From the NCBI GenBank assembly GCA_043228905.1, contig JBHGNT010000003.1:19096001-19160000 (forward strand): a stretch of 64,000 nucleotides of DNA. Direction: 5' to 3'. Below, piece after piece: positions 5,186-61,538 of the stretch. This stretch comes from Azolla caroliniana. Taxonomy: Eukaryota > Plantae > Polypodiophyta. A model generated the notes under the pieces. The model had not been told where the DNA came from and made no database searches. It saw only the letters and a list, made by a program, of their open reading frames with translations. Each line of letters opens with the position of its first letter. Position 1 is the first letter of the stretch. A program made the translations under genes and the position numbers.

Positions 5186-5638
5186 TCGTTGTCGAGACTT
5201 GAGAATAGGAGAGAGAGAGATAAGATGACGGTAGAATATATATATATATATATACAAAGAGAGAGAGAGTGAGAGAGAGAGAGAGTTTATATTATAAGAG
5301 AGCAAGGATTACAAATAGTAGGCTAAGGGGCTACAAACTGGTGTTGAACCGAATGAGTTATAATGAATTAATAGACACCTATTTATAGGTCCTTATGGAG
5401 TATTCTAGAATGTTCTAGAATAATTTAGATATTTAATATAATCATGGAATATTCTAGAGTGTTCTAGAATTCTCTAGGATGTTCTAAAATACTCTAAATA
5501 TCTTGTATTAACTATAATATAATTATTATAATTATAAATCATGTATCTTATGCTAATGGTTAAAGGTCTAACATATAGACCAAGACGTCATGGATTCGAA
5601 TCCTTATAAGGCCACAATGTATTTATGTCTTCATGACA

Positions 5639-8600
5639 TTATCCCCCTTTTTGACGACGAGTTCCACGAGTCAAAAGATAAGATTTAGGACTTGGTTTAT
5701 GGGGATATTTGTTGTGAAACGCGGAAATCATGTCCAAGGCATTAACAAGATTCTCAGAAGGCTCCCATGTTCGATCATTAGGTGTATAACCTAACCAATC
5801 TACCAAATAATATGGTTTGTTGCAGACGATCTTGGAGTCGAGAATGGCTGCAACTTCATATTCAGAGCCATTGGAAACTTCGATTGGAGGTGGGGGAGAT
5901 GTAAGACGACCTAGGATAGAGCTAGTTGTGTAGGGTTCCAAAAGGGAAACATGAAAGACATGGAGGAGGTAGATCAAGGCGAAATGCCACATCATTAATC
6001 TTACCAGATATCACATATGGGCCAAAAAGTTGATAATCCAATTTGTAGCAAGATCGGGTGGTTTTAATGCTATCTTGTAAGAGCCATACTTGATCTCCCA
6101 CTTGAAACAGAGTTGATGAATCACGTCGATGTCAGTCGGCAACCTGCTTTTGAGTATTTTGAGCAACACATAAATGGTGCGAAATTTATCCTGAATTTCT
6201 TGGAGTCAGGTAAGCCGATCTTCAATAGCCGGGTTTGTCGGGAGTTCAAGATGTTCAAGCATAGTCCAACGTGGATGGTACCCAATGTTCGCAAAAAATG
6301 GGGAGTATCCAGTAGAAGAATGTTCTGAGTTGTTGTAAGCAAATTCTAGCAAATGTAATAGATCAACCCAATCATCTTGTTGATAGTTGACAAAACAACA
6401 AAGATATTGCTCTATTGTTTGGTTGGTGCATTCACTTTGCCCGTTAGTTTCTAGATGGTGACTGGAAGAGAGTTTGCAAGAAGTATGTAAGAGTTTAAAC
6501 ATGTGTGGCCAAAATTTTGAGATGAATTGGGGACCCTGATCACTGATAATATCATCGGGAAGACCATGATGCTGAAACACCTCTCTCATGAGTAACTCAG
6601 CTGTCTCTTGGCTCGTAATGGCCTTCATGCAGGGAAGAAAATGCGCCATCTTCGTAAAACGGTTTACTAATGTAAGAATAGAATCAAAACCCTTGGAAGG
6701 TGGTAGATCCGTAATGAAGTCCAATGAAATAGATTTCCATGGACTCTCAAGAGTAGGCATTGGTTGTAATAAGCCATATGGATGATGTCAAGATTTTTTG
6801 GATTGGCAACATGTATCACTACGAACATAATTCGTAACAAATTGGCGAAGTCATGGCCACCAATATCTTCGAGAAATTAACGCCAAAGTCTTGTGGATGC
6901 CGAAATGTCCAACCATCGGTGTGTCATGACATTGTTGCAAGAATTGGAGTCGAGAAGGACCGTCAAGCACATACAAGAGATTTTGTCGAAAAAGTAAACC
7001 ATCATGCCAACTGAATTGGTTGTAGTCTTGACGAGGATTTTGAGATTGTGAACAAGAAGCTCGATTTGGGATAATGTGGTTCAAAATGTCTTGGGCGAAT
7101 TCATCAGTCTCAATATGCTCTCGAATGGAATCAAGAAGACTTGAATCTCTGGGTGTGCGTATAGCATGGAATGCCATTAGTCGTAGACGGTTAGAACCCA
7201 AGAGGATTTTCTTCTAACTTTCAAATGCGGCCTCCCCTGGTTGAAGTTCCATATACGAACGTCGAGATAAAGCATCTGATTTTCCTTGTTGTATCCCAAG
7301 GCGATATAGAATTACAAAATCAAAACGAGTTAAGAACTGCGCCCAACCAGGTTGTCGACGACTAAAGATTCGAGCACTTTGGAAGTGCGTTAGGTTTTTG
7401 TGATCATTGTAGACAATGATCTGTTGAGAAGAACCTTCCAAAAAATGATGCCATTGTTGAAAAGAATCCACAATGGCAATAAGCTCTTCGTCGTGAATCC
7501 CATAGTTGATTTCTGTAGCTTCAAATTTCTTTGATGAACTTGCGATAAAAGTTTGGAAGCCCAAAAAACATTGTACATCTCGCAAAGACTGTGGTGTTTG
7601 CCAATCCAAAACTGTTTGAACCTTTGCTGGATCCATAGCTATGTACCCCAAAAATACCACTTGATGCTGGTCGAAACTACACTTCTCCAATTTTTCATAG
7701 AGACCATATTCACGCAATCGTTGTAAAGCTTGTGACTTGATGCTGGTCGAAACTACACTTCTCCAATTTTGCATAGAGACCATATTCACGCAACCGTTGT
7801 AAAGCTTGTCGAATGTGTATATCATGCTCTATTTGAGTTTTTGAGTAGATCAAGATATCATCCAAGTTGTCAAGATTCGAACTCTTGACATGACCATGTT
7901 ATAATCGAGTGTTATGTGTTAACCACACATCTAGCATATAGTCATGTATATACTTCCTCATTGTAGGTTTTAGCTAGCATCATGTGCATAATTTCTCCCT
8001 TGTATTATTAACACTTGGCACATGCATGCGTACCTACTGCCTACATGCTCTATTGTATCACATGTGTGCAACAGGTATGCATGCCACTTAGTATAAATAG
8101 TTGAGTTCACCTTGAAGGAATTCAAGGTGAACAACGCCAGTCATGGACATATCAATCTAGTATTCTCATTTCGCCCAATCTTGTCTCCTTAATCTTCATC
8201 TCTATCTTTATGCTCTTGTGTCATTCCGTCATTGCTCCGTCGTAGCCTCATCATCCGTGCTCCGTCTTAGTCTGCACTTGGTGTGTCCATGACACAGGTA
8301 AACTATGACGAAAATATCGAGGAAAACTCTAAAAATGTCATTCGCCATATGTTGGAAAACTGTTGGTGCATTTGTGAGACCAAATGGCATCACTGTATAC
8401 TCAAAATGGCCATAGCGGGTACGGAAAGCAGTCTTCCATTCATCCCCAGGATGGATTCGAACAAGGTTGTAAGCACCTCGAAGATCTAACTTTGTGAAAT
8501 ATTTAGCTCCAGTGAGGCATTCTAGAAGGCTTGATATCAACGGTAAAGCATATCGATTTCGAATAGTTACTTTATTCAATCCCCGATAATCCATGACCAG

Positions 8601-10561: not shown

Positions 10562-10733
10562 ATATTCTTGCTTGCTGACAGACTCCTTAGTTATGAGAGA
10601 AAATTGCTAGATTTGGTTGAATAAGATTAAGATAAGAAGAAGAAGTTGGAGAAAAAGAAAAGAGAGAAATTTGGTTCAAACTGTCGAGACTTGAGAATAG
10701 GAGAGAGAAAGATAAGATGACGATAGAAGGTAT

Positions 10734-10765
<32 letters not shown>

Positions 10766-10843
10766 CACTAGAAATGGAAAGAGAGTTTATATTATAAGAG
10801 AGCAAGGATTACAAAGAGTAGGCTAAGGGGCTACAAACTAGTG

Positions 10844-10968
10844 TTGAACCGAATGAGTTATAATGAATGAATAGACACGTATTTAAGGTCCTTATGGAGT
10901 ATTCTAGAATGTTCTAGAATATTTATGATATTTAATATAATCATGGAATATTCTAGAATGTTCTAGAA
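10844..10968 (-). promoter_or_regulatory. 5' LTR promoter: heat-shock-element arrays, TATA box and predicted R start
   Basis: TTCtaGAAtgTTCtaGAA (10902-10919) and GAAtaTTCtaGAAtgTTCtaGAA (10946-10968) lie upstream of the TATA (intact TATAAATA in the 3' LTR at 5380-5387, minus strand). Confidence 0.7.
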
Positions 10969-11913
10969 TTCTCTAGGATGTTCTAGAATACTCTAACTAT
11001 CTTGTATTAACTATAATATAATTATTATAACTATACATCATGTATTTTATGCTAATGGTTAAAGGTCTAACATATAGACCAAGACGCCATGGATTCAAAT
11101 CTTTATAAGGCCAAAATGTATGTTTTCATGACAATCGTCTCCCAAACCACGTCATTTTGGACTGAATTAATAGGCATACATGGAGACACTTCCTCAACAT
11201 ATCGACCTCTTGTATATAATACAAAGTTAACATTTTCTTTTTCATAATCTTGTACCTCACCCTTAATATCAACCCACATCACTGCCCCCATTTATATATT
11301 CTAGAGCCATATTAACAAATGTTTTTCACTAAGCATATACCTTGTAAATCCATCAAGAAATGTGCTAAGTAAAAATGGTTCAATAATGAATACCATGAAG
11401 CTTGAAAATTCCTTATGAGTTTGGACGTAGTCAAGGATAAGGAAGGATATTATTGGGCAAGGCGTGGCATGACTTTAGGGCCTTTTGTGGCAACCTAGAA
11501 CGAACACGAGAGTTGAAATTGGGTGTTACCTTGGAACCAACCTTGAGCTTTCATGGTTCGGCCAAAGATTTTTCATATGGCATAAGATTTGGTCCCATCA
11601 CGTTCATGTTTATGTGTATAGCTCTTAAGTTAAATTGATTTGGTAGTTGTATGTGCCCTTTTAGAGGTTTAATTTCGATGTATTTTGACTTTCGGTGAAT
11701 TTGAGAATGTCTAGGAAGGCAAAACTAGGAGTTAGCACCTTCTTCCCTTTGCACATTTTTGTGATTCTCTCACATGCACCTTCGGCAATGGGATATACGA
11801 GGCTTGGCATGGGTTCCCTTTAGTGCATGCATAGTAATGATTTGTTGGCTCCATGTAATGCCATAAGGTGTTGATTTGTTTAGAATTGAAGCGGTTTTTT
11901 TTTCAAGAGTTCT

Positions 11914-38466: not shown

Positions 38467-41448
38467 GCTTTTTCTTGTTATTCATAGATGTCCCATGTGG
38501 GGTTAAATAGTACAATGAGGGTTGTCCATCAATAAGATACATAGGGGTGCATACACCTCTAGCCATCCACACACATAATTCGTTCACACCCTTTCATATC
38601 TACCCACATGCACACACATGTGCATGTGTTCATACAAATACACATATACTCACACTCACTCTCTTGCACATTTGCACATACACAACAACAAAACTATAGA
38701 CTTTCACCCTTATCCATCCCCGTACATCTCATACAGGTGACAATCAAAGAGCTCCAAAGATAAATGACAAAGAAATTTCTAGGGAACAATTCTATCTTAG
38801 CATTGGATGCGATAACATGGTGTAATGTGTACTTAACACAAATATGATGTCTTTACTACTTGACATAGTCCCTAAATTAAGATTCTAAATTTTATTTATT
38901 GGAGAGAGCTTATTATAGCATGTGGGCAACAACAATCATGTGAAAGCATTAGGGATAACAACTTAATTGAAGACCAAATCAGATATATAGGGATCATACA
39001 AGCTATCTATGATGTGGCATTCTATGTTATAAGATAAGTAATATTACTACATTAAGGGATGTAAAGTCTTGCCCTTTTTGTAGAAAATGTGCCATTCGCA
39101 AAAATTGTATGACAAAACAACACCCTTTAGAATCACTTGGAAAAGTTAGCATTATTTGTATAATGGAGTGACATTGATTGTCCTAGTAAAAATATTCGAA
39201 ATTTGGTGTCGTTTAAAAGTTTTGAAAAATATGAAAATTAAAAAGGGTATATCAGAAGCCCATTTCTCTTATTTTCAAAGTTTGATGCCACTCCCCACTA
39301 TCAACACTTTATAGTGCAACCCAATCACACACACACTTACAATGTACAATCTGTTGTATGTAAACATGTGCACATGTGTGTCTTGTGTTGAGGACTTGTT
39401 AAATGCAAGTTCAACAACAGTCAATGGCAGGACAAATTTATTGTTCTCACTCACATGCACATTATCTGAGACGCTATGGCAGTTTACAAATGCTTCCGCC
39501 TTCCTTTCCTCATCTCCTTTCAACAAATACTGAAGTACCTCACCATCAAATACACATGAATGCACATATACATCACGTGTATGTGTGAAAACATTTGTAT
39601 TTTGTGTGGATGTGTATGTGGGAGGAAATCCATGAAACCATGATTTTCCTATCATTCAACAAATAGTATAATGACTCAATTTGAACACATGAAATAATAT
39701 TGTTTAATTATTTTGTCAATTATGTGAATAGTATCTAGTTCTTGTTTTTGTTTGAGATAAAATAAAGACCATGACCTGGTTGTTGAATATTATAAGCAAG
39801 TGACAATATTGTGCTCTAAGGATTGATGTTAATCCCTTATTGGAAAGTATGTTTCTCTTGCTTGATAATATATTCATACACACACATGATTTCCAACCTA
39901 CATCTTATAATATTAGGTTTGCATTTTAACATATTTGATAACGACCTTTGTTAAGCAAGAACTTTGTTTTGGCATCACGTGGAAAATGGAGGTTCACTAT
40001 CTTTGTCGTTCACATTGGCATTAGCTTCTAAATATATTATGTGGTCTACCTACTGTCACGGACGTAGACGAGGGCAAGGACAAGTAGGCGAGCTCAATAT
40101 TAACAAAGAGAGAAAGATAGATATATAGATAGAGAGGAGCATAGACAAGAGAACAAGAGAGAGAGAGAGGGTAGACAAAAGAGCGAGAACTAAAGTATGC
40201 TTCCGTAACTGGTGTTGTTCACCTTGATTGTAATCAAGGTGCACCGAAGTATTTATACAAGAATGCATGTAAGCTAGGAAACATCTAGAGAATGCATGGA
40301 AACTTCTAGAAAGTGCATGGCTATGCATTCTCTAGTAGTTTCTTGAAAGGTCTAGTGATTAACTTAAAATGAAATAAGTTCAACCCCCTACATTCTATCG
40401 TGTCTATGACATTATCCTCCCTCTAAGGCTGCCTCCCGGGACTCGTGGCTGGCTTATGTGGGTATCGTTGATGAAAATCATGAATGGCCTCCGGAGCATT
40501 TTGTAAATGTGTAATTGGTTCCCATGTGGCGTCTGAAATGGGGTAACCTTTCCATAAGACCAAATATTGGAGCTGTCGACGACGATATTGAGAGTCGAGG
40601 ATTTGGTCAACCTCATATTCTTCGCCCATTGACAATTCCATAGGTGGCGGTGGAGGAGGGTGCCCTCTTGGAATTCGAGAAGGATGGTAGAGTTTGTGGA
40701 GGGAAACGTGAAAAACATCGTGAATCCTGAATGTTGGAGGAAGTGCTAACCGGAAGGCGACTGGGTTGATCCGCTCGATGATACGAAAGGGGCCTAGTCT
40801 TTTGTAGTCCAATTTTGCACAAGGACGTGTGGTGGCGATGTGACAACATAACATCCAAACCATGTCCCCAATTGCAAACGTCAGTGCAGTTAAGCGATGT
40901 CAGTCCGCTTGATCTTTATAGTGGTCACCAACAACACGGAACTCCAAGGAGAGGTCACGATGGACATCGTGTAAAGTGCGGGCAAGCGTCTCTACTGAAG
41001 GATTGACCGAAGTTGCAGGTATGGAAATGTTGAAACGAGGGTGAAATCCATAGTTTGCAAAGAAGGGGGAAACCTTAGTCGAAGCATGGATACTATTATT
41101 GTAAGCAAATTCTGTCATTGCAAGGAAGTCCACCCAATCCTCCTGTTGGTAGCTCACGGTAAACCGAAGGTATTGTTCGAGGATTTGGTTGACTCGCTCC
41201 GTTTGGCCATCAGTTTGAGGATAGTATGCTAAGGACAAGTTGACAAAAGTCTCGAATGTTTGTAGAAGTCGTCGCCAAAAGTGGGAAATGAACTGAGAAC
41301 CTCGATCAGAGGTGATATCCTCGGGTAAACCGTGTAATCGAACAACATTTTTAAGAAAAAGATTAGTTGTCTCTTCCTTGGAAATGATTTTGGAACATGG
41401 AACAAAGTGATTCATCTTTGAAAACCTATCGACAATGACTAGCACCGT

Positions 41449-44400
41449 TGTCGTGAAGTACGAAAGTTTCACATTAAAAGTCTACAATAAGATAAATACG
41501 TAACTAAAATAACATTTGATAATGTTTTATATATAAAGATAATATTAACAACACATGATAATATTATATATATGTAAAGAAAAATAATATATATATATAT
41601 AGATAAATATATTATATTACACGAACAAGAGAGGACATGAACCAATAACCCCACCCTATGACTTTCAAATCTTACCATTTACTCTATACTAATAATATAT
41701 ATACTCATGATATAAAAACGATGTTACATGTTGTAAATTCAATAATATTTGAGAGACTCAAACCCACAACCTCATATACCAAAGTCAACACACCTGCCAT
41801 TAAGCTAGATCCTTTGTTCTTAAAACTATATTTTCATGTTTATTCTTATGCCATATATTTTTTCATGCATGAAAGCTCAAATGAGCAAGATGCCTATCAT
41901 GCATCACATGTAATGCATGAACGCCAAATGGCGATCATGCATCACATGCGTTTCATGCACTACATGCATGGCTTGTACCCTCCAATACATCATATGCATG
42001 GGGATACCTATTTAAATGGTGAAAGAGAAGATGAAAGGGGGAAGAAGTATGAGATATCAATCAAATATATATTACATAAGAGATACCATAAAATAGAGAA
42101 AGAAAGGAAGAAGTTCAACATAAAGGTGGACCTCTAGCTTGGTGATACGGGGAAGTAGAAGAGACATCTAACGTAAAGATCAAAATCAACATGGAAAGTA
42201 CAAGTACAATGGATCCGGTAATGTTGTTTATTGAAAAGTTGAATCAAGATCGATTATTTCATGCCTTACGAGAAGTTCGAAAGAAGATTGGTATGTTTGA
42301 TGGCACAAATATTTCGAAGTATGTGAATATATATTATGATTCAAAATGGAAATGTCTGGTATAAATGATGTTAATATGATAGCAAACTTTTATAAATTAG
42401 TGGACATGGAATTAAGAGATAGAATTCATGAAATACAAGCATTGCATAGTTTGGATTGGAATGCATTCAAAGAAACACTTGTGTCTGAATATGCTCATGA
42501 GGATTTCTCTCGAGTTACTATGTGTTCATTTCATGAATGGATCTTAAAAGAAGATAAAGGGTTATCTGTGGCTGACACAAAAAAAGAGTTTGATAGGATG
42601 TATGGACACTTAAAGCCAAAAGAAAGAAATTCTTTGTCTTGGCAAAAGGTTGCTTTATTTTTGCAGGCAGTTGACAAGAGATATATAAAAGAATTGGAAT
42701 TCATGTCTGAAGTACCAAATACTGAGGATGGTATAACTGCAGATTGGAATGAGGTAACAAATGCTTGTAATAAATTTATGAAAAGAATGCAAAGGAATGG
42801 TGCAATGCTACAAATACCACATGTGGGAATCACAAATAAGCTTGAGCAAAACATCGAAGTTCAAAGACTTGGTCGAGAACCATCACACGAAATGGTCCAT
42901 CAACCACGAGAAATGATTGAAACTAAGAGTGAGTCTTTGCTTGATGATTTAGTTCAAAGTATGAAAGATCTAACAATTAAAGTGGCAAAGCTTGAGAATG
43001 GTCAGACTTCGACGTCAAGGGAATCATTTCGACCTCGATGCATGTGGTGTGATATTCTCGAACATCGATTACGTGATTGTGCGGAATATAAAGACATGGA
43101 AAATCAAGACTTGGTATATTGGAAAAATGGTAACATTTATTTAACTGAAACTAGAAGTCCACTTACAAAGAACTTTGGTGATGGTGGTGTTAAGGTTAAA
43201 TTTGAAGAAGCTGAAGCAAAGAAGGCTTCCGCAATGTACTACTCGGCAACGGTAGGAATGCGCCTCGATGACATGCCATCCCAATCATCATTCTGGGAGA
43301 GGGTTGTAAGTACCGCACAAAAGCAAAAGATGAGGATGGAAGACCTTCGTGTTGCCGGAGATTCTGTAAGGAAAAACACTGGATGGGATGTTCCAGTAGA
43401 TGTTATGCGGTCTATGCTCAGATGGCAGAACACCAAGAGCATGAGGTGATAGTGGAAGAAAAAAGGAAAAGGACGGATGATGAGATTGGCTCAACAAAAA
43501 AGCATGAGACAAGAGAAAGCAAAAGAAAAGAGATGGACGCAAAGGTCAAAAAAGGTAAATCTGGTCCTTCATTCAAATTAATGTTTGATATTGAAAAAGA
43601 TACAGATTTAAAGAAAGTTTTAGAAACAAGAATACTAGATAGTCAAGTAGAATTTACACTAAGAGAAGTGTTAAGTATTGCAAAAAAGGAATTTCATGAT
43701 GAAATAATTGATATTGTGCGAAGAAAGAAGCAAGTAAATGAGCAGGTTAAAGAGACAAATCCAAAGGTGGCATATGAAGTGGTGAGCAACAAGTCAAACA
43801 ATATCGTTGTTGACTCTCAACATGCATCAACCTCAATGAGAAATTCAACAGATGTAAGAAGCCATTACTCTCGCAAATGTTGGGCAAGAGTCACTACTGA
43901 GCATCATGTGAAGATTGGAAATGTTCTAGACCCCGTGATGGCACTTATTGATCATGGTACTAAAATAAATATAATGAGTGCTGATTTTTACAGGAAAGGT
44001 AGATGGCCAATTGATACTCAACATGGTTGGCGAGTAAAAATTGCCACATCAGTCACAGAAGATTTATTTGGTGCATGCCCAAATGTAAAGGTTACTATTG
44101 GTGATATAGAGGTAGATCAACATTTCTTTGTGCAGGAAGGATCTACCTATCCAATAATCCTGGGGCAACCATACATTACAGCGGTACGGATGGAGACCAA
44201 AGTCCTCGACAAGGGTTCTGCCTATGCGAAAATCCATAGCCAAGATGGACGACGAACTGTATAATTTATGAGAGTTCGCCCAAATCATGAAAGGAACAAG
44301 CAAGAGCTTCTCGATCATTCAATACCAAAAGACTGTGATGATTTTGATAATCAGGTTTTTGACTAGGACTATTGCGAGTGTCCCATTATTAAAAAACCCT

Positions 44401-47400: not shown

Positions 47401-48632
47401 GAAGAGGTGAGTAGAGAAGAATTACTTGCTTTGCGAATTCAACAATTAGAGCGTCGACCTGAAGATATAGAAATAGCAGCCCAACGATTGAAGGAGGCTC
47501 GACTGAAGAATAAAATTCGTTTTGATAAAACTCATAGAATTCGACCTAAGAAAATAGAAGAAGGAGATTGGGTGCTCATGTATGATAGCAGTTTAGATAA
47601 TCAACATAGCACCGTCCGCAAGTTCGCTGAAAGATGGTTTGGGCCTTATATAGTAAGAAAAATATATGATAACTTTACTTATAAGCTTAGTGAATTGGAT
47701 GGGACACTAATCCTAAACGTGGTAGCTGAAAAGAGGATAAAAGTATTTAAGAAAAGGTTTGAGCTTGAACCTCCTCCAATAGATCAACATGAAGATGAAA
47801 GATAGTGGCACATGCCAGAGGATGTACAGGTCTAGAGGGGGTGGATGTCGTGAAGTACGAAAGTTTCACATTAAAAGTCTACAATAAGATAAATACGTAA
47901 CTAAAATAACATTTGATAATGTTTTATATATAAAGATAATATTAACAACATATACGATAATATTATATATATGTAAAGAAAAATAATATATATATATATA
48001 TAGATAAATATATTATATTACACGAACAAGAGACGACTTGAACCAATAACCCCACCCTATGACTTTCAAATCTTACCATTTACTCTATACTAATAATATA
48101 CATAAAATAAAGGATTTGCTTCATGATATAAAAACGGCGTTACATGTTGTAAATTCAATAATATTTGAGAGACTCAAACCCACAACCTCATATACCAAAG
48201 TCAACACACCTGCCATTAAGCTAGGTCCTTTGTTTTTAAAACTATATTTTCATGTTTATTCTTATGCCATATATTTTTTCATACATGAAATCTCAAATGA
48301 GCGAGATGCCTATCATGCATCAAAATATTGAAGTGAAGATTGTTGTGGCCTACTATCAAGAAAGAGAAGAGCGATTATCTTGTGAGACCAAGTTCGAAGG
48401 ATCAACGACACTTACAACCACTTTTGTAACTCTTTCATCAAAAAAATTATAAATCTCTTTTATTCCTTCAAATATCATTCAATATCCTATCTTGTCATAT
48501 CTTGTTGATCTCTATTTACTTTATCTCTACTCTTTCGTCTCTTCCGTCCATAATCCTAGTGATTCCTTCCTCACTTTCACGATATCTTTTGTCTACGCAA
48601 CGCTACGCTTCTAGGCAAGCCACGCCACGACA
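41449..48632 (+). mobile_element. Nested non-chromovirus Ty3/Gypsy element with a 4-bp TSD
   Basis: tgtcgtgaag..ccacgaca termini; TSD ccgt; 3' LTR 47846-48632 after PPT agagggggtgga; 5' LTR 41449-~42120 lacks its U5/PBS end. Confidence 0.9.
42191..47805 (+). pseudogene. gag-pol of the nested Gypsy (disrupted)
   Basis: Gag with CMWC..HRLRDC, protease LIDHGT..ILGQP, RT DLYSGYDQ..LPQGATNS..FLDD, RNase H ETDCLPL..ADMLSR, integrase ADRGE..YNPEANG..WFGPY; no chromodomain; stops and frameshifts. Confidence 0.9.
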
Positions 48633-48845: not shown

Positions 48846-50312
48846 GCTCACTCCAACTATTGTTCGTGTTCTAGATCCCAGCAAGGACCGACATGGTTAC
48901 TCATGCCCGCTATTGTTCATGTTCCAATTCCCAATGAGGACCGCACATGGTCGCTCACACCCGTTGGTGTTCGTGTTCCAACTCTCGGCATTGACCAATA
49001 TGGTCTCTCATGCCCGTTGGTGTTTGTGTTCCTTGTGAGGACCACACATGGTTGCTCACTCTAGCTATTGTTCGTGTTCCAGATCCCGGCGAGGACCGGC
49101 ATGGTCACTCATGCCTGTTGTTGTTCATGTTCCAGTTCTCGGTGAGGACCACACATGGTCGCTCACGCCCGTTGGTGTTCGTGTTCCAACTTTCGGCGAG
49201 GACCGACATGGTCTCTCACGCCTGTTGGTGTTCGTGTTCCTTGTGACGACCGCACATGGTCACTCACGCTTGTTGGTATTCATATTCTAGTTCCCGACGA
49301 GGACCACATGGTCACTCACGCCTGTTGGTATTCGTATTCCAGTTCCCGATGAGGACCACATGGTCGTTCACGCCTATTTGTGTTTCCGATGAGGACCACA
49401 CATGGTCGCGCATATTTTGATTCCCGGTGAGGGCCACACATGGTTGCTCATGTCCGCTTGTGTTCCAGTTCCCAGTGAGGATTGCACGCGGTCGCTCACG
49501 TTCCGATTCCTAGTGAGGGCCACACATGGTTGCTTGCGCTCGCTCGTGTTCAAGTTCTCGGTGAGGACCGCATGGTTGCTCACTCTCGTTCGTGTTCCAT
49601 TTCCCTCACTCTCGTTCATGCTCTAGTTCCCAGTGAGGACCGCATGGTCACTCACGCTTGTTCATGTTCCCAATGAGAACCACACATTGTCGCTCACGTC
49701 CATTGTTGTTCGAGTTTCCAGTGAGGACAACACATGGTTTCTCACGCCCACCACTTCCCATTCACCCCTACACCGTGCTTTCGAAAAGGCAACCATAAAG
49801 GGGAGGATAATGTCACAGACATCACAACAACTATGTCAAGATTTGAACTCTTGACCTCTTGTATTATAGTCAAGTGTTATATTGTAACCAACACATCCAA
49901 GTACATGGTCGTATTATGTATATCTTCGTAGATTATCTATTTCAAGTTCTAGGAGATTTTTGAAAGTTCTAGAACTAGAAGGTTGTAGAGGGTTCTAGAA
50001 TATTCTCCAGAATATTCTTATGCATGTACTTGGACTCACAGTATAAATACTTGTAACCTCCTTGGTCCCTTTCAAGGTATTCAACACCAGTCGTTGACAC
50101 ATCAATGTAGTATTCTTGTTTAGCTCCATCTTCTCTCCTTGATTTACATCTCTGTCTTTATGCTCTTGTATTGTTCCTAGCGTCTTAGGTTCCTCATCTC
50201 ATCGTTACCGAGTTTCTAGCCTCATTAGGTGGAGTTCCACGTTCGTAACCTTATTGGTCGTAGCCTTGTGATCTGTGCTTTGTCACAGTCTAGCGTTGGT
50301 GTGTCCGTGACA
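48846..50312 (+). mobile_element. 3' half of a non-autonomous LTR element: degenerate ~50-bp tandem array, PPT and 3' LTR (49811-50312)
   Basis: Unit gaggaccRcatggtcgctcac(g/t)cccgtt..cgtgttccagttcccggt; PPT aaaggggaggataa; LTR tgtca..gtgaca with TATAAATA at 50043. Confidence 0.85.
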
Positions 50313-52900
50313 ATTGCCTCCTTAAGAACATCATTTGATTTTTTTCAATGTCATTCCATGCATTAAGAGAGATGGTGCCACCCCATACTTCTACTCCATA
50401 AAGCAATACTCGAGTTACCATTGCATTGAACAACATTAGTTTTACTTCCCATCCATAAGTATCACTTTGGCTACATTGGTTCTCCGAAACATAATACGAT
50501 TTCCAACCATCTTGAAGTCTAGAATCAAAGCATGCATTCCATTTATTTGTGGTGGGTACATCAATACCAAGATATTTAAATCTTTGAACAAATTATATAT
50601 GATGAGGTTGGTTGGTTTGCACTGCCATCATTTTTGTTTTCTCCACATTCACTGCTAGTCCACTACTATGGCAAAATTCCCTCTCCCTACATAAGATAGG
50701 GTAGATGTTATCCGTGGGACGATAAGACCAAGGTGTGAAAAGGATTGTAAAAGTAAAAGGTGAAAGGGGACGAGTAGGTCAAGATAAAGAAGCCGAGAAC
50801 TAGCAGCCAAGGGGAAAAGTAACCGAAATACAAGCAACCGGAAACATAGGCCGAGGATCAAGATAGAGTAGTTGGAACACCCCGATAAAGGAAAGAGTTA
50901 TATAAGGCGTGAAGAAGACAGAAAAAGGGGACAAGGAGATATCTAATTCTAACCAAAGTGACTAAAGCTAGAAAATCTAGATCTGTATATGAGAGAGTGA
51001 GTGATACTGACCTTACTCGGTTTTGTACTACCTTGATCCAATCTATTCAGTAATCAATTACTTATACGTTTTGGGTCAACCTCTGTACCTATCTCATTTT
51101 AAATTGCATTTCCAATTGTGCTATCTGTTCTGTAAATCGTGACTATAGATTGGTTATAGCCGATCCTCGGAGTTTCCAACCCAAAAGGGTGTAACGTTTC
51201 GGCCCTACCTTAGTCTCTTACGCGACCACAATTCCTTGACCCCATTACTCATGAGGAGTAATCAAAGACGTTCCCCAGGAAGGGAGTAACACAATTTGAC
51301 ATGTCCAGTTAATGCCGTGAAGTCACAGCGAACAACGCGTAGGAGAAACCCTTGTCGCCATAACAGTGCCCACCCAAGGCACACGTTTTCAGCTACCATC
51401 CCAACGAGTTGAACCACCCTAAGGCATCTCCGACTCCATGCTCACACAACAATCGGCACCATAACAATCACCATCCCCCCAATCCCCGTTGTCGACACCC
51501 GACTCTCAGTCGACTGTGGGCTCCGATCCCGTTTTGATATGAGCATGCATTTGTATATAATAGTTTAGTATTCTATAGTCTAGGAGATAGTACATTTTAG
51601 AATCAGAATATTCTAGTCAGTAGTATATTCTAGAAATATTGTATGACATATTCTACATGAGTATATTCTAGAGATATTTCTCGAGTATATTCTAGAGATA
51701 TTCAATCTCGGAACATGTATAAATACTTGTAACCTCCTTGGTCCCTTCAAGGGATTCAACACCAGTCATTGACACATCAATCTAGTATTCTCATTTCGCC
51801 CCATCTTGTCTCCTTGATCTTTATCTCTATCTTCATGATCTTGTGTCATTCCTAGCTTCTTAAGTTCCACGTGCTTAGCCCCATCATCCATGCTCCCTCA
51901 TAATCCATGGTTGGTGTGTCCATGACAGATTGATTCCCTTCCAACTGGAATCACCACCCGTCCTGGTCATCGTCTTTGCTTCTAAAGTTACCATCATCAC
52001 CATCCTTGCTTCCGCAGTTACCATCATCATCGTCCTTGCTACCGTTTGTGCTGTGTTTTGGGTCAACCTCAACTATTTACCCTCTCATAATAGAAGAAGT
52101 CGAGTCGACCGCTACACTTGCACTCCTTCACCCATTCGTGTTCCAGTTCCCGGTGAAGGACTGCATGGTCCCTCACTCCCATTCGTGTTCTAGTTTTCGA
52201 TGAGTACCACATGGTTGTTCATTCCCGTTCATGTTCTAGTTCTCGGTGAGACCTCATGGTCGCTCACATCGTTAGTATTCCACTTCCCGGTGAGGGCCGC
52301 ATGGTCGCTCACTCCCGTTCGTGTTCTGCATCTCGATGAGGACCGCAAGGTCGCTCAGATCGTTCGTGTTCCAGTTCCTGGTGAGAAATGCATGATCACT
52401 CACTCCCGTTCTTGTTCCATTTTTCGGTGAGGACAATATGGTCGCTCACTCCCTTTCGTGTTCCAATTCTCAGTGAGGAATGCATGTTCGCTCACGTTAC
52501 GATTCCCAGTGAGGGCCACACATGGTCGTTCATGCCCATTCTTGTTCCAGTTCTTAGAGAGGACCGCACATGGTAACTCATGTTCTGATTCCCAGTGAGG
52601 GCCACACATGGTTGCTCACGCCCGCTAGTGTTCAATTTCTCAGTGAGGACCACATGGTCGATCACTCTCGTTCGTGTTCCAACTCCTGGTGAGGACCGCA
52701 TGGTCGCTCACTCCCGTTTGTGTTCCAGTTCCCGTTGAGGGCTGCATGGTCGCTCACTCCCGTTCGTGTTCCAGTTCTCTCACTCTCGTTCATGTTCCAG
52801 TTCCCGATGAAGACCGCACATGGTCGCTCACGCCCGTTCATGTTCCCGATGAGCACTGCACATGGTCGCTCACGCCCGTTTGTGTTTCCGATGAGGACTG

Positions 52901-53169
52901 TGACAAGAATACACGCTCCCGATGAACAACGCTCGGCCACAACCGAGCCTAGGATCAAACATAGAAAACGGGTAATGAATGCACGACACAGTGAAGAGAA
53001 GAGTACACAGGATGTTAACGTGGAAAACCCAAACAAGGGAAAAACCACGGCACCCGACAGACTACAAACTATCACTATATCACAATGTACAATAGTAAAG
53101 CACTGAGGCAATGACCTCGAGCTTGCTATCTTCGCCACAGGCGGCGGTTACAATAGAGGCAACGACCTC

Positions 53170-53231
<62 letters not shown>

Positions 53232-54270
53232 CACAGTTACGCACTCAAATCTTGCACCAACAAGAATGACAACTACTATTTACCACTAAGTTTGCCCTGA
53301 GTCATATTTATAATAATATGACTTTTCGGCTATTTACAAATGTAGCCCACATGGACTCTCAGAAAACATATTTACGAATATGTCCCTTCATCCGGTGAGC
53401 ACTTCTCACTGGGCCTTCACCATCCGGCTCTTGCCGGGTACTCGTCATCCGGTTCTCACCGGGTCTTCCGTTGCCTAGTACTCCACATCCGGTTCTCACC
53501 GGGTCTTCCTTTGCAGGGTACTCTGTTGGGAGACAGGTCCCTCCGGATGGGAAGGGAGAAGAACAGTACCGACGAACAAACTCGGCCGAGGCCGAAATGG
53601 TATGAGGAGTACCCGGCTACGGAGAGCCGGATGATGCAGGCCCGGTGTGAACCGGATGAGGAGTACCCAGCTACGGAGAACCGGATGGTGCAGGCCGGTA
53701 TGAACCGGAGGAAGAGACATATTCGTAAATATGTTTCTAAGAGCCCACTATGGCTATATTTGTAAATAGCCGAAAAGTCATATTAGTATAAATATGACTT
53801 AGGGCAAACTTTTAGTTGTTGTTGTGGTTATTTTTCTTGTTGGTGCAAGAAGAAGAGAGAGCACGTAACAGTGTATAGAGAGAGAGTGAGAGAAAGAGGT
53901 CGTTGCCTCTGCTGTAACCGCCGCCTGTGGCGAAGAACGTGAGTCCGAGGTCGTTGCCTCTGAGAACTCACTGCTTTGTACATTCATACATAGTGATAGT
54001 TTGCAGCCTGTGGGCTGCCGTGGTTTTTCTCCCTAGTTTGGGGTTTTCCACGTAAACCTCCTATGTACTGTGTGTGTATCTTCCTCTCCTTTGTATCGTG
54101 TTTTATTTCCCGTTTTTCTGTGTAAGTAAAGAATCTCGGTTGTGGCCGAGCGTCGGACATAAGGAACGTTGGGTTCTCGTCATACTCCACATCCAGTTTT
54201 GGCCTCGGCCGAGTTTGCTCATCAACACTGTTCTTCTCACTTCCCATCCGGAGGGACTTGTTTCCTAACA
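52901..54270 (-). mobile_element. Solo LTR of the Copia B family
   Basis: Reverse-complement similarity to 16027-16874; termini tgaca..taaca; TSD gactg/gacta; (CT)n expansion at ~53173-53226. Confidence 0.88.
53524..54182 (+). mobile_element. Second Copia B-family solo LTR nested in the opposite orientation
   Basis: tgttgggagac..ctcgtca; perfect TSD tactc. Confidence 0.92.
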
Positions 54271-55919
54271 GACTACACATGGTCGCTCAGGTCCCGATTC
54301 CTAGTGAGGGCCACACATAGTTGTTCATGCTCGTTCGTGTTCAAGTTCTCAGTGAGGACCACATGGTCGCCCACTCTCGTTCGTGTTCCAACTCCTAGTG
54401 AGGACCGCATGGTCACTCACTCCCATTCGTGTTCCAGTTCCCGTTGAGTGCCACATGGTAACTCACTCCTGTTCGTGTTCCAGTTCCTTCACTCTCGTTC
54501 ATGTTCCAATTCCAGGTGAGGACCGCATTGTCACTCACGCCCGCTCATGTTCCCAATGAGGACCACACAAGGTCACTCACGCCCGTTCGTGTTTCCGATG
54601 AGAATTGCACATGGTTGCTCATATTCTGATTCCCAATGAGGGCCACACATGGTTGCTCACACCCGCTAGTGTTCAAGTTCTCGGTGAGGACCGCATGGTC
54701 GCTCACTCTCGTTCGTGTTCCAACTCCTAGTGAGGACCGCATGGTCACTCACTCCCGTTCGTGTTCCAGTTTTCGGTGAGTACCACATGGTCGCTCATTC
54801 CCGTTCTGTTCCAGTTCCTTCACTCTCGTTCATGTTCCCGTTCCCAGTGAGGACCGCATGGTCACTCATGCCCGCTCATGTTCCCATTGAGGACCGCACA
54901 TGGTCGCTCACATCCGTTGGTGTTCGTGTTTCCAGTGAGGATAACACATGGTTTCTCATGCCCACCACTTCCATCCACCCCTACACCACGCTTTTGAAAA
55001 GGCGACTATAAAGGGGACGATAATGTCAAGACACAACGATGTCAAATACGTAGTTAGTGAGGATTGAACCTACAACCTCACAGCATGGTTGTAATCATAA
55101 AACGTAATATTCATGTTCGTGCAAGCATTCAAACGTTTGGAAACGAACACGTTTGAAATGGGAAAAATACGTGCTCCTTTTTTTATTCTTTTTTTCCCTT
55201 TATCCTCATTACAACTTAGGTTACCTTAGTGGTCAGGAACCATGCTATTGCTATTTATGTTTTGGGTTCGATTCCCAATTTTTTTATCTCTTTCATTCTC
55301 TCTCATTAGTACCATGTCATAGCAAAATTTTATGTTAGTGTTATAATAGTTTTTTCTTTTATTTTTTTATTATTAGAACTAAGCACAACCTCATGATAAG
55401 TTGTTGTGCTACTATTACTTGTGTCTTGGGTTCAATTACCACTTTTCTCATATCCTCTTGTTAGGTGTCATGGCAAATTTTTATGTTAGTGTCATGTTCC
55501 TTTTTCTTCTTTTTCTTTCTTTCTTTGTTATTGGAAATTAGCTCACCCGAGTGGTAAGTTGTTATGCTACTACTGCCTATGTCATGGCAATTTTTTTTGT
55601 TAATGTCATGCTCCTTTTTCATTCATTCATTCTTTGTTTGTTATTAGAAATTAGGTCACCCTAGTGGTAAGTTGTTATGCTACTACTGCCTATGTAATGT
55701 TTTCTTCATATTCTCGAATATACGTTTTATGAGTTTTTGAACGTTTGATTATAATTTATAATGACATATTTTGATTCAATCTCTATAGTTCATACTCATT
55801 TTTTTGTAAAGTTCTAAAGTGTGGATGATAGAGATGTCTTGATTCGCATCCCAAAAATATGCATGTGATACAATGCAAATATTGCAACCAACTATACATA
55901 TCTCCATGCAATTTTCGAT

Positions 55920-58773
55920 TATATTTCTTCTTCGAAATCATCATTAGAAGATTACATTGTTGTATCATCATAGTTGTCCACATAATCAATATCAGAAGAT
56001 GAATCAACTATGGCATTGTTAATGTCTTCATCCTCTTGATCTCCATCATCATTACCAAATTCAGTATTGCAAGCCTTAGTTGTAGTTTGTCGAGAAATTA
56101 TCCTTCTTGTACTTGCAACTCTCACACAAGCATGACTACGAACATATCCACGACCTTTTCTAATAGTGCTAGAATTTCATCCCACCAATCCTTCATCTAG
56201 GCAAACTTAGATCTACTTCGAGTAACCCGACCAATATGCATAGCCTCAACTTCTGCAAAATATGCTTGTGTAACTTGAGTATCAATATTGGTTGTTGATG
56301 GAGGCATTTCAGGAGTCTTGTCAATGTCTATCTCATCTGGATTTACATAAATCAAATAGTATTTTGGTATCATAATAACGATTCATAATATTTAAACCAC
56401 AACCAATTAACAAGGCTCGTTAATTAACACACAAAATTCAAATGGTTTTCTAAACATCAAATGTCAAACATGAATAAGAAAGATGTAAACCTGCATTGGA
56501 AGACCCACATGAGTTTGAAAGCTTCGAACAAGCCTTAAGTTTTCTCTAACATATAATAATCTCTCCACTTGTTTCACCTTCAAACAGTTCCTCCTTTTTG
56601 TATGTGCTAATGCATGTGCATTCCAATTTCTTTTTCAGCAACTCCAGAAGAGCAATCCTATGACACAAAGTATTAAGCAAACAATACATGTCATTGTACT
56701 ATGTAGAAGATTAATAAAATTGAAACATTAATAAAAAATGAAATATAATACCTAAGACAATACTCTACGAGCTAACGATTGTAGTAAGGGCTCATTGTCC
56801 CCTTATCTTTCCCACCATTTTGCAATGTGTGATTTTGATAGTTCATTGCTAAATCGGCCCACACCATTCCTATACATGGAAAATTGATCTTGCAAGATTT
56901 CACATTCATCTATAGAATATACCTTTTGAATATATGCAAGCCATCCATCTGTCATCTCTTCATTCATAATATTGGTTGATCTTTGGGCTTCCATAAAGGA
57001 TGCAAAATATGTGCAACAATATGAATTGGCTTTTTGAACCACGACCAACGACAATCAAAACATTCCAAAACCTCTTTATATCTGCATTAACATTTGAATT
57101 TGAATCAAAACTTGAAATTACTTACCAATATATGCATAACGTAGTTGATATCAATGATTCAAAAAAATGAAAAAGATGCAATTAACAACAAGTGTACATA
57201 CTACATAGTACATAGAAACATATTACATGTCCTTGTTTAATGTGTCCTCTCTCGCTCCTTGTTGCAATCTGTCTCTAGCCCTCCTCATGAACTCATAAAG
57301 TAAGCCCATTGTAGATCCTTCACAATTAGTTAGCCGCAAAACAGAAAACAATGGACGCATAATCAAAATTACAATCATAATTGAAGGCAAAGTGGAGTTA
57401 TCTTGCACAATGGACTTCACCTTGACAACATCCGGCGTTTTGGAGTCATTCCAATCCTCCCAATAGTTACTAACTATAGTTTGTTCAAGGGCTCTGCAAA
57501 CTCTCGCCAGCCTCTCAAGGACAATAAGAATGTAGCCAAATCGAGTGGCACTTGGCCTAAGGAGCACAAGAGATGAATAGTTGCTGAAAATTTTTCGTGC
57601 ATTCCTTTTCTTAGTGAATAGTCTAACCACACAATTTGCTCTCTTGTGCACTTGACGAACCCAACTCAACTTCCCAATATCCTCTAGCAATAAATCTAAA
57701 CAATGTGATGCACAAGGAGTCCATACAAGGCTTGGGAATTCAGTCTCTAGAATGTGACCCATGCTAACACAATTAGATGCATTATCCGTGACAATTTGCA
57801 CCACATTTTCTACTTTTACTTCCTTTATCGCAGTTGATAGCATTTCAACCAACCATGGACCATCAACCCTTGTAGAAACACCACTACAATCAATAGTTTT
57901 AAGGTACATTGTGCCATAACAACGTGAGACCAAAATATTCACAAGTGCTCGCTTGCTAGTGTCAATCCATCCATCTGAAAGTATGGTAACTCCATATTTT
58001 GGCCAAAGGGCTTTCACATTTTCCACTTTGAGTTGCACATTCAAATGCTCTTTCTTTAAATATTTAACTCTTAAATCATTGTAGGTAATACCACTATACT
58101 TTTCCCCAATATCAGAGAAAGCTAACAACATGTTCCTCCAACATGACATTTTCAAAATATTAAAAGATAGATTACCTTCCACAATGCATCTAACCAACAT
58201 TGTGTTTGCATGGTCTTTCTTGATCAACATAGCGGCACTTGATCCTCTCCTTATCGTGCTTTGAGTGAGACTTTTTCTTCTTGAACCTTCTGTATCTTCA
58301 ATATCAATAGGAATTTGGTCTATTGAATCCTTCTTAGATGAGGCACATATGCTATCAATTGAAGTTTGTGATTGGAACATTGAATCAACCATTGAATCCA
58401 CCATGCCTTCTTGAAGCTCAATTTGTTTTTCCATTGATTCTACTTCTTTAATGTGTTTTAGCTTCTTGCGAGTCAATTCACTTTCTTGTGCTACAGTTTC
58501 TATAGCATCTTCATATGCCTCTAGAGTTACTTGCACACACTTGTCTATACCTTCACCTTTAATTCCAGCAAGGTGAGCAACTAAACGTGTTAGTGTCCCA
58601 GACTCATGAAAACCACATAATTTGCAATCCCAATAATAGTTCCCAGATGACTTCCTAGCTTGTTTGTTCAAACAATATTTATCCCATAAGGGGGATTCCT
58701 TGCGTAGCATAGTTGATTGAGGATGACAAGCTCTAGTGACTTGAAGTTGTCTTTTATATTGTCCTAAATTCAT
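55920..58773 (-). pseudogene. Intron-containing hAT transposase (BED finger, DUF659-type DDE core, dimerization domain); probably defective
   Basis: ORF 57223-58773: WDCKLC..RLVAHL, SDGW, QIVTDNASN, WTPCASHCLDL, PSATRF. Further exons at ~56752-57081 (KWW), ~56491-56660 and ~55924-56339 are bounded by GT-AG; downstream exons show lesions. Confidence 0.88.
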
Positions 58774-59299
58774 GAATCCACAATGTTAAATATGTGAATA
58801 AGGAAATAATGTGATGTAACAATGCAAGAAGAAATTGTTTAAATGATAGGCATAAGCAAATGGCAAATCCGAATGGAAGATACTTGCCTAAGAAAATGGT
58901 ATTCCATCCCCATCAAGAGGAAAAAATTATTATTCATTAGTCTAAATGAATTATAAAAGATCACATAATCACGGAACTTTTACTTGTGATGTCGGTGTGC
59001 TCTTGTATGAAGACACTATTCTTTGATAAGTCACCACAAGCTATCAACGTCTCTATCTACCACCAACATTGTTCTATTAAAGAAGGGATAGACACAAATA
59101 AACCCAAACGATACATGTAACATGTTGTATTATACTATAGTCTATTATGCATATAAGTTGATGGAATCTGTGTTTTCATGAATTCAATAGGAAAAATTCC
59201 AAAATACTTGTTCCAAAATCCCAAGAGTGACAGTGACAATTTAGTGAGATATCATGACTAGGAAATAGATGTAAAGAGTGTCACAATTGTATGCATCAC

Positions 59300-59445
59300 A
59301 AATCATACATGCATACAATACAAGACAAACACACAAACACATGTACATACACACACACATACATACATACAATACAATACAATACAATACAATACATACA
59401 TATATGTATATATATGTACGTATATATGCATATATAATGTATGTG
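59300..59445. repeat. Compound microsatellite (CA, CATA, ATACA, TA) in the hAT 5' intron region
   Basis: Read directly from the sequence. Confidence 0.85.
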
Positions 59446-60275
59446 TTGTAAATACTCACTTCTTCTCTTCCTTTCTTTTCTGCGTGGCTAAACGAAAGCA
59501 CAAGTTAAAGAATGAGATAATGGCTGCTTGTTGTCGAGAGTTGAGCTTTAGCTCTTCCCCATCCCTCCCTCTACCCCTCTCCATTTCACATAGAAGACAT
59601 TCTCCAATGATGAGGCATTCCTCATCTCCCTCTTCTTTCTTCTCCAAATCGGGAGGCCTTTTAATGGTTGGTTATGATTGAATTAACCATCCATTAAAAG
59701 GCCAAGATTTAGCTTGATTTGATGTTTATTCCATGTCAATATGAATCATGATCAAGGATTGAAAATATATCTATTGTATATAGTCTATTTATGATCAAAA
59801 TTGCTTTCAAATTTTATGAAATTCTGGTCAAATTAGGCCAAAAATAAAACTTTGTTTTATGCTCTCTATGTGTGTAAGATCAATTAACACTAAAATTGAA
59901 AGTTCTACTTTATTGTGTTTTGTCATTGTGTGATGGTATTAGGCCTAAACAAGAAGAAACACCTCAATAGAATTTGCGCTCACTAAGAGTTAATCATGTA
60001 TAATAATATAATATAATCAAGAAGCAATATTAGTTCATACCTACGTAAAAACCTAGGTTGTTGGAAGCTTTAGAGTTCGGATTTCATGTAGACAACTTCC
60101 ATATCCTGCATAAAAACCTAGTATCTACAAAATGTAGAAAATCGTTACAAAAAACCCTAATTATTTTCTTTTTCTCTAGTAAAAAATACCCTAGAAAATT
60201 AATTTTTAAATTATTTACGAATTTAACCTTAGAAAAAATGACAGTTCCAAAAGGTTGAATACGTTTAGAATACGT

Positions 60276-61051
60276 TGTCGTGAAGAATTTCAGCCAGAGG
60301 CGGAAACCGGGAAATATTGGCTACATCGGCGGGGTGCGCCATGTGCACTCACACTCGTATAATTGTGTGAATAATAGGAGTTAAGTCGGGACGAAGAATA
60401 CCATGTAAATCAGGATTTATCCCACATTGTAACGCATCCCTCTCCTTGTTCTATAAAACGAAGGGATGGCCCCTTGTAGAAGGGTTGCCCATTTTTGCAA
60501 TCGTAGGGTATACCGTTAGAGGAAGAAACGTTCTCTCTTCCTCTTTCTCCCCCCTTGTTTACGGTTTCGTTTCTTTTCTCTTCTTCTTCCTCTTCGTTGT
60601 TCTGAGTATCGAGCCTTGGCATCTCGTGTTCCTGTTTTCCGGCCGTTCTCTGTGCAAGACCCCGCTTGGCACGACAGGCCCGAGAGCTCCCCCCCCGACT
60701 GGCGGCTTGGCAATAGACGACTGTTGTAACCTGAGCTACTTCGGTCGGGCTCGATACCAATATTGTATCTTAGTCTTGTAATATATGCATGGAGGGTTCT
60801 GCGCACCGGTGTTTGTGTGGGTGTTTTGGTGTTCTCTTACCTCTGTTTCTGTACATAAGGTCGTGAGTTGGGTCGGCGTGGTGTCTGTGTGTGGGTGTGA
60901 GTCAGTGTCAAGTGCGCGCTCTCTCTCTTTCTCTCTCCTGTTCGGTTGCTTCCGGAATGCGTCCGGAATCGTCTTCTCGGGTTCCCTTCTTCCCTCGTCC
61001 GAGACCCCCGTGGTCCCACCCTTCTACACGCACGCGTGAAACTTCGCGACA
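60276..61051 (+). mobile_element. Solo LTR with a 4-bp TSD inserted in the hAT subterminal region
   Basis: tgtcgtgaag..tcgcgaca; TSD acgt; TATAAAA at 60452; same terminal 10 bp as the Gypsy at 41449. Confidence 0.88.
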
Positions 61052-61538
61052 ACGTGTGGGTATTCTAAAATGTACTCTATCTATAAAATACGCATTTTTT
61101 AACAACAATGCCTCACAGCTACAAGATGTCATGCTCAACCATTTTGATATGAGCATGTATTTGTATATAATAGTTTAGTATTCTATAGTCTAGCATATAG
61201 TACATTTCAGAATCAGATTATTCTAGTCAATAGTATATTCTAGAAATATTGTATGACATATTATACACGAGTATATTCTAGAGATATTTCTCGAGTATAT
61301 ATTCTAGACATATTCAATCTCGAAACATGTATAAATACTTGTAACCTCTTGGTCCCTTCAAGGGATTCAACACCAGTCATTGACACATCAATCTAGTATT
61401 CTCATTTCGCCCCATCTTGTCTCCTTGATCTTTATCTCTATCTTCATGCTCTTGTGTCGTTCCTAGCTTCTTAAGTTCCACGCGCTTAGCCCCATCATCC
61501 GTGCTCCCTCGTAGTCTGTGGTTGGTGTGTCCATGACA

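Follow-up and report, generated by a model that had tools for sequence, protein, structure and literature searches.

Antisense tRNA-type A/B-box pairs in the outer U3 of long terminal repeats of two gypsy lineages in a plant genome, a candidate TFIIIC-bound boundary

Sequences resembling tRNAs are already known from the long terminal repeats (LTRs) of very small retrotransposons. The Helenus group of miniature terminal-repeat retrotransposons (TRIMs; TRIMp3) carries a tRNA-like sequence in both LTRs, and the one plant case given in the available text is from Selaginella (Kojima 2024, PMC10886601). The same text expects autonomous partners not to share such an LTR sequence, yet it states that not a few LTRs in Repbase hold tRNA-like pieces. 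RNA polymerase III (Pol III) promoters in LTRs were previously known just as drivers of tiny non-autonomous elements. Here I describe a tRNA-type pair of A and B boxes, called the cassette, which lies antisense in the outer U3 region of LTRs. What is new is its presence in autonomous elements, its antisense placement and its occurrence in two gypsy lineages. The starting point was a stretch of 64,000 nucleotides (G000:C3:19096001-19160000, referred to as the window) from the 523-Mb plant assembly of Azolla caroliniana. The window consists of nested retrotransposons. It holds gypsy frames for reverse transcriptase (RT), RNase H and integrase as well as copia frames, one DUF659 (hAT-type) frame and a pentatricopeptide repeat (PPR) fragment.

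The focal cassette lies in an LTR of a family named C (Table 1). A preliminary description, made from the letters of the window, had proposed a tRNA-like antisense unit at 49834-49900, and this was borne out by two methods. On the minus strand, 49829-49897 fits the Rfam tRNA model RF00005 with a score of 21.4 bits, which is below the model's cut-off of 29 bits. This match is the sole tRNA row among 25 weak Rfam rows of the window (E 7.2 over 4227 families), and its E-value is 0.057 when the family C LTR alone is considered. A two-box matrix (A box plus B box), trained solely on 25 host tRNA genes, was also run along entire LTRs in both orientations; each LTR was compared with 120 dinucleotide shuffles, and p ≤0.033 was taken as a match. 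The family C cassette outscores all 120 shuffles. A functional tRNA gene was considered and rejected: ARAGORN reported 0 tRNA genes in the whole window, the scores of 21-25 bits stay under 29, and the cloverleaf and the anticodon arm are not kept. Relaxed ARAGORN thresholds gave mainly noise.

Family C has many copies at 84-94% identity; 40 of 1768 candidates were scored. Several LTR pairs of this family lie 1.7-2.4 kb apart without RT or integrase, and eight slices from the interior of families C, F and B gave no match to either. Family C is regarded as non-autonomous because its internal slices lack such matches. A chromodomain frame was not found for families C and G. Families C and F share internal arrays of degenerate 40-50-bp tandem repeats (window positions 48900-49760, 52100-52900 and 54190-54950).

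Is the cassette common among the LTRs of this genome? LTR families were gathered via chromodomain and LTR-pair anchors, as motif-based harvests from a random sample (15 and 13 sites) were too strict. An antisense matrix match was found in 16 of 18 chromovirus-type LTRs, which represent 15 families; the two misses are a deleted copy of family E and family L, and one LTR has a sense match as well. Three of the four LTRs of a second gypsy lineage also have an antisense match, and none of 14 copia-type LTRs matches on either strand. When 30 loci were scored for each of five families, antisense matches were present in 30 (C), 30 (A), 28 (B), 26 (F) and 26 (E), or 140/150 in total, and sense matches in 0/150. 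The cassette is also present in both LTRs of paired elements. Thus, in line with the preliminary description, it is a fixed part of both LTRs and not a separate insertion of a short interspersed element (SINE); neither a tail nor a target-site duplication (TSD) was found at the cassette edges. In an unbiased background sample of 100 stretches of 10 kb, the matrix gave 74 matches (vs 3 per Mb in shuffles), and a manual count placed 34 in LTRs, 32 in tRNA genes or their decayed copies and 8 elsewhere. A profile hidden Markov model of host tRNAs recovers the same cassettes.

Beyond family C, the chromovirus-type cassette sites in the window belong to four LTR families (A, B, E and F). The antisense units proposed earlier at 7868-7935, 5549-5610 and 11049-11105 score with matrix p 0.008-0.017, and the two pieces at 55045-55083 and 61119-61154 are indeed one cassette, interrupted by a DUF659 (hAT-type) transposon that has an 8-bp duplication. 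At 40350-40390 the B box is real, but the shortened full layout read there is not, since about 80-90 bp including the A box have been lost from this family E copy (p 0.099). Intact copies of family E have a tRNA-like unit of 72 nt, the acceptor stem of which pairs perfectly over 7 bp. They reach 24-25 bits in 2 of 6 loci tested and are the most tRNA-like of all cassettes. The two cassettes in the non-chromovirus gypsy element N (Table 1) were not in the earlier list.

In every one of the 14 scoring chromovirus-type families, 15-72 nt separate the residue corresponding to G53 of tRNA from the LTR end. This closeness would suit a role in the free cDNA, where TFIIIC near the U3 end might aid nuclear placement or steer integration. 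Such a role is very unlikely, given that no enrichment of tRNA genes was found near the elements (2 of 200 element loci, covering 678 kb, vs 4 of 100 random 10-kb stretches) and that the cassettes of the second lineage lie 75-330 nt inside the LTR and also downstream of the TATA box.

The boxes are better kept than their flanks, as the preliminary description would predict. In pairwise comparisons of 17 families, the integrase ends of which are 45-89% identical, the B box averages an identity of 0.78, tRNA positions 44-48 one of 0.68 and the A box one of 0.57; the acceptor arms, the anticodon region and the flanks reach 0.30-0.36. This profile was anchored at the best box match, so that box identity is inflated; the shuffle test is an independent control. 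G53, T55, A58 and C61 are present in 17/17 families. The A-B spacing is 34-36 in 13/17 families and 39-42 in C, B, B2 and G. Within families, all 11 copy sets (two of them overlapping) show less variation in the box columns than in the remaining U3, with CpG left out of the box columns. The anchoring and the omission of CpG both reduce the weight of these comparisons as support for the boundary proposed below. Changes in the B-box CpG include a family-wide G57A in 5 sets and a C56T in 1 set, as well as private changes both ways. The family-wide box changes land on tolerated letters, and the C56T family retains a second intact B box in 13/15 matches. A pattern match also located the C54 variant of family A at 64 loci of the host that have a His anticodon loop; 2/2 of those checked are tRNA-His by ARAGORN. 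In family B, the LTR has been trimmed to 6 nt from the B box and the box is still kept.

Does the cassette retain the shape of a tRNA? Cloverleaf pairing in 24 cassettes (four long-spacer families were left out) is 53.1% vs 50.4% in shuffles, a level reached by 28 of 500 shuffles, and the anticodon stem pairs at 39%. RNAalifold found no common structure in the 24 cassettes. These data bear on the idea that the 3′ end of the genomic RNA carries a tRNA mimic or a tRNA-annealing site for priming or packaging. The perfect acceptor stem of family E would agree with it, as would the in-register pairing, which is slightly above that of slid controls. However, the stems are not kept across families and there is no common fold, by which this idea is largely refuted; no good match exists among 19 host anticodon types, and chromoviruses prime themselves. 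A mimic is thus hardly credible. Since the boxes and their spacing are kept and the cloverleaf, anticodon and terminator are not, the cassette appears to be a DNA-level type-2 Pol III promoter rather than a tRNA. The conservation pattern, as read from the alignments, is that of a protein-binding promoter and not of a folded RNA. Judged from sequence comparison, the cassette is very probably a real tRNA-type box pair kept by selection.

The carrier LTR families had been described as Tcn1-like, and the chromodomain, self-priming site and RT neighbours support self-priming chromoviruses of the Tcn1/Tf1-Sushi type. Besides the chromodomain (PF00385) of element E, chromodomain frames precede the LTRs of A, A2, B2, E2 and H-M; A, B2, E and K are coding chromoviruses. 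In families C, A, B, E and F, the stretch that follows the 5′ LTR can pair with the start of the R region of the same LTR and not with the end of a tRNA. In 6 of 7 slices, this complement is 7-11 nt long and its partner in the LTR lies some 32-37 nt past the TATA start; family K also shows the site. The nearest named relatives of the chromovirus RT are amphibian, lizard and basidiomycete elements, and no named Tcn1 reference is among the 120 matches listed. By chromodomain, RT neighbours and self-priming, the window chromoviruses fit the self-priming Tcn1 clade as described in the available part of PMC6317226. In several chromovirus families, the middle part of U3 is a long imperfect palindrome of short TCTAGA-containing repeats (window 10897-10976 and 5400-5480, and the middles of the family E and F LTRs), and it draws spurious microRNA matches.

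The second lineage is represented in the window by element N (41449-48322), the RT of which is about 26% identical to the chromovirus RT. Named relatives of this RT are from Riccia, Adiantum and Calypogeia (liverworts and a fern), and my guess is that N is of Phygy type. A primer binding site (PBS) for host tRNA-Trp was found in the element N relatives at L196, L239 and L273, but could not be located for family N itself. Two antisense cassettes are present in 18/18 copies of family N. Family N2 has two antisense units in U3 plus a strong sense unit, situated some 90 nt past the TATA box; its three-cassette LTRs lie at L222:7563-8350, L196:5130-5990 and L273:3880-4880. In both N and N2, the cassettes flank the TATA box on both sides and point away from it. 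A fourth family of this lineage shows no cassette. The locus L239:1343-8967, a tRNA-Trp-primed gypsy element lacking a cassette, is surrounded by clustered tRNA-Trp genes and decayed copies of them.

Is the cassette also present in other hosts? A metagenome scan with an integrase-chromodomain alignment gave 80 loci, of which 11 were dropped because no polypurine tract (PPT) was found or the sequence was too short. On 41 contigs of one name type, an antisense cassette is present in 34 and a sense cassette in none. These contigs come from close kin of the host, because near-identical copies of families K and B lie on them. The other contig type, apparently from another host, yielded 28 LTRs with the same PPT and LTR start, and the cassette is present in 0/28; these represent only about three families, and therefore the effective sample is small. 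The cassette looks specific to this host lineage and not general to Tcn1-like elements. In a quick, unrooted tree with weak support, a cassette-less clade lies between two cassette-bearing clades, which allows one or two gains in the chromoviruses.

With regard to origin, an LTR may have captured the head of a tRNA-type SINE or a tRNA gene. A tRNA-Tyr source had been suggested tentatively; it finds no support, the loop read as TTGTAGC occurring in just 3 of 29 family F matches. The best local host tRNA match differs by family over 19 anticodon types, and the set contains no Tyr gene. A captured primer tRNA was likewise rejected: the orientation fits, but chromoviruses self-prime and a CCA complement is lacking; it is possible for a distant ancestor. 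Host tRNA genes (Ala, Met, Lys, Ile, His and Trp) often form single-isotype tandem arrays plus decayed copies (L223, L214, L121 and L138; G000:C12:9867034-9877505).

The genome also contains a SINE-like repeat of about 200 bp inserted in GA microsatellites (1138 candidates, 40 scored, 25 viewed; loci L411-L435, L213:5265 and 5794, and L234:3680). Its TSDs are indistinguishable from the GA repeats. The repeat starts with a tRNA-like head, at about 90% identity to two kin-host E-type cassettes; its end is a second, inverted tRNA-like unit resembling the unit at a hAT end, so that the two units converge. In 20/20 copies viewed (window 55214-55700, L436-L455, and L190:461 and 642), tandem tRNA-like A/B units at the left end of the hAT transposon face inward and run antisense to the transposase frame. 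Because the repeat heads are 94% alike mutually and the E-type cassettes 78.5%, the evidence leans towards a birth of the SINE-like repeat from an LTR cassette; an 87-column tree does not settle the direction of exchange. Judging by these likenesses, tRNA-type box pairs move between transposon classes in this host. The preliminary description lacked this link, as well as the Helenus precedent and the second gypsy lineage.

What may the cassette do? [quoted passage not shown] The A/B-box pair in the outer U3 probably binds TFIIIC, and probably TFIIIB on the promoter side. The bound complex would form a boundary which keeps flanking chromatin and incoming transcription from acting on the Pol II promoter of the element. 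Selection would act on replicating copies, and any antisense RNA would be a by-product without a fixed end. This TFIIIC-bound boundary, which agrees with the insulator idea of the preliminary description, is the preferred reading and is proposed tentatively, with a probability of roughly 0.45. It is the simplest reading because the boxes and their spacing appear to be selected and the sequence, fold and end of a product do not, and because the units edge or bracket the Pol II promoter.

The same boxes might instead be an active Pol III promoter. An antisense RNA from the 3′ LTR would then cross the PPT into the element and tune copy number, silencing or plus-strand priming. Both boxes are kept, mostly with tRNA-like spacing, and an AT-rich flank lies at the expected TFIIIB site in 14/17 families. 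The SINE-like repeat head suggests that the unit can fire in the host, and the hAT units are likewise inward and antisense. However, the first T4 run lies 10-126 nt past the B box, and none lies within 400 nt in 3/14 families. Neither the sequence nor the structure of such an RNA is kept, and the sense cassettes of N and N2 would be left unexplained. A regulatory antisense RNA is thus rather unlikely. The earlier proposal of a defined short RNA ending at a T5 terminator is not supported: no terminator is conserved across families, and the T5 run at 5648-5652 is peculiar to that one copy. Of two contig sets aligned to 49700-50330, one is probably DNA and the other gave 2 contigs, both outside the cassette; as neither shows strand or ends, they do not bear on expression.

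Several observations weigh against the TFIIIC-bound boundary. The element's Pol II transcript must cross the cassette of the 3′ LTR, where a stable Pol III complex could act as a roadblock, to extrapolate from the available part of PMC4228148. The A boxes of families C and B are degenerate, with a spacing of 41-42, and a kept A box and AT-rich flank (14/17 families) would fit real transcription equally well. A weaker sense cassette after the TATA box scores in only 7/18 copies of family N. The cassette is dispensable: it is absent or decayed in family L, in N4, in 7/41 kin-host LTRs and in all 28 other-host LTRs. Finally, B-box CpGs have decayed at 11/76 copy-sites vs 208/986 other LTR CpGs (p 0.19), and in family A at 5/31 vs 5/32. 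Since B-box CpGs decay like the other CpGs of the LTR, most inserted copies show no protection.

The last two observations would also agree with a neutral relic, that is, one or more SINE heads inserted in ancestral LTRs and now decaying as passengers. A donor-like SINE repeat exists, the cassette has been lost or degraded in several families, and relatives in the other host replicate without it. On the other hand, the boxes persist while the inter-box spacer and the flanks have diverged to background. The same orientation at the same LTR end recurs in two lineages as distant as their RTs indicate, and family B has kept the box at the very edge of a shortened LTR. A mere relic is therefore quite improbable.

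A wider scenario would have self-priming chromoviruses, tRNA-primed gypsy elements and hAT transposons, which are unrelated, each take up tRNA-type boxes as TFIIIC bookends guarding their own promoters, with one LTR cassette having fired as a Pol III promoter and founded the SINE-like repeat. As a whole, this scenario is possible but doubtful. Since the cassette is kept in autonomous elements which have their own Pol II promoter, and faces the wrong way, a different use from that in small elements is suggested, either a portable chromatin boundary or an antisense unit. With about 34 LTR-borne matches per Mb in the sample, the genome would hold thousands of candidate TFIIIC sites. Two questions could be tested directly in this system: by what means elements with a chromodomain remain expressible in silent chromatin, and whether TFIIIC barriers are functional in plants.

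Other features of the window are as follows. A PPR-repeat frame at 4090-4620 on the minus strand adjoins element A. Positions 32043-33599 hold a 1.5-kb element with long nested inverted repeats (arms of 181 nt, 90%), either a foldback element or one resembling a miniature inverted-repeat transposable element. Two copia-type LTR copies lie head to head, inverted, inside element F (52912-53506 and 53516-54153).

Table 1. Cassettes and their carrier elements in the window (T8, G18, G53 and C61 are tRNA positions).
Feature	Position	Strand	Details
Polypurine tract preceding family C LTR	49797..49810	+	
3′ LTR of non-autonomous self-priming family C element	49811..50312	+	TATA at 50042; 5′ LTR missing at this locus
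tRNA-like cassette, family C	49829..49906	-	A box ~49899-49886 (degenerate, without A14), B box 49848-49840; T8 49899, G18 49889, G53 49848, C61 49840; G18-G53 spacing 41
3′ LTR of chromovirus A	5190..5638	-	Element on minus strand: broken RT, RNase H, integrase, chromodomain; 5-bp TSD
Cassette in A 3′ LTR	5541..5613	+	T8 5548, G53 5594
5′ LTR of chromovirus A	10682..11133	-	Self-priming site follows
Cassette in A 5′ LTR	11040..11112	+	T8 11047, G53 11093
Solo LTR, family B, inserted in A	7868..8294	+	LTR start 6 nt from B box
Cassette, family B	7868..7941	-	T8 7934, G53 7882, spacing 42
3′ LTR of chromovirus E	40054..40411	-	Deletion takes out A box
Surviving B box, family E copy	40378..40386	+	
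Chromodomain (PF00385), element E	40465..40617	-	Directly precedes PPT
Outer part, family F 3′ LTR	55024..55083	+	B box 55061-55069 on minus strand
Remainder, family F 3′ LTR	61119..61538	+	A box ~61137-61150 on minus strand
hAT-type DNA transposon splitting family F cassette	55084..61110		DUF659 frame 57223-58785 on minus strand; 8-bp duplication
tRNA-like A/B-box unit in hAT left end	55214..55286	+	Points inward; T8 55221, G53 55266
Cassette in 5′ LTR (starts 41449) of non-chromovirus gypsy element N	41744..41815	-	T8 41808, G53 41763
Cassette in truncated 3′ LTR (47846-48322) of element N	48160..48231	-	

How does the cassette compare with known systems? The preliminary description knew of no earlier account for these elements, but the Helenus TRIMs are a direct precedent (PMC10886601); the autonomous, antisense, two-lineage form does appear to be new. 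A literature search found no report of an antisense tRNA-type box pair in autonomous gypsy LTRs, although the Helenus supplements or Repbase may list such LTRs, and the available text of PMC10886601 does not use the word antisense. [quoted passage not shown] Its proposed origin, a SINE insertion into an LTR, is similar to the capture suggested here. In contrast, Helenus elements are non-autonomous and 311-1263 bp in length (screened at <1000 bp), whereas the present carriers are autonomous chromoviruses with long pol frames and their derivatives of 1.5-3 kb. The Helenus Pol III promoter is proposed to transcribe the element, whereas the U3 cassette here is antisense and directed outward, next to a TATA box that is intact; N and N2 are the only families here with an additional sense unit past the TATA box. 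Helenus has a tRNA-complementary PBS, and families C, A, B, E and F have a self-complementary site.

The Cassandra and Ajax TRIMs also have a Pol III internal promoter inside the LTR, but theirs is a 5S-derived type-1 promoter which transcribes a non-autonomous element in sense (PMC10886601, PMC10946416, available parts). With the Tcn1 clade, the present elements share the Ty3/gypsy affiliation, the chromodomain, self-priming, the PPT, LTRs of about 440 bp and a non-seed plant host. The descriptions of that clade in the available parts of PMC2864245 and PMC6317226 mention no tRNA-like LTR sequence. The cassette is absent from the 28 related LTRs of what is apparently another host. The closest functional likeness is to tRNA-gene (tDNA) barriers and ETC sites, where A/B or B boxes affect neighbouring chromatin and Pol II transcription (PMC12409998, PMC4228148), and to the mouse B2 SINE, a mobile boundary tied to CTCF (PMC8136502). 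As far as these sources were available, those systems are host loci or free SINEs of yeast and mammals, whereas the boxes described here are built into the promoter region of retrotransposons and their binding by TFIIIC is predicted.
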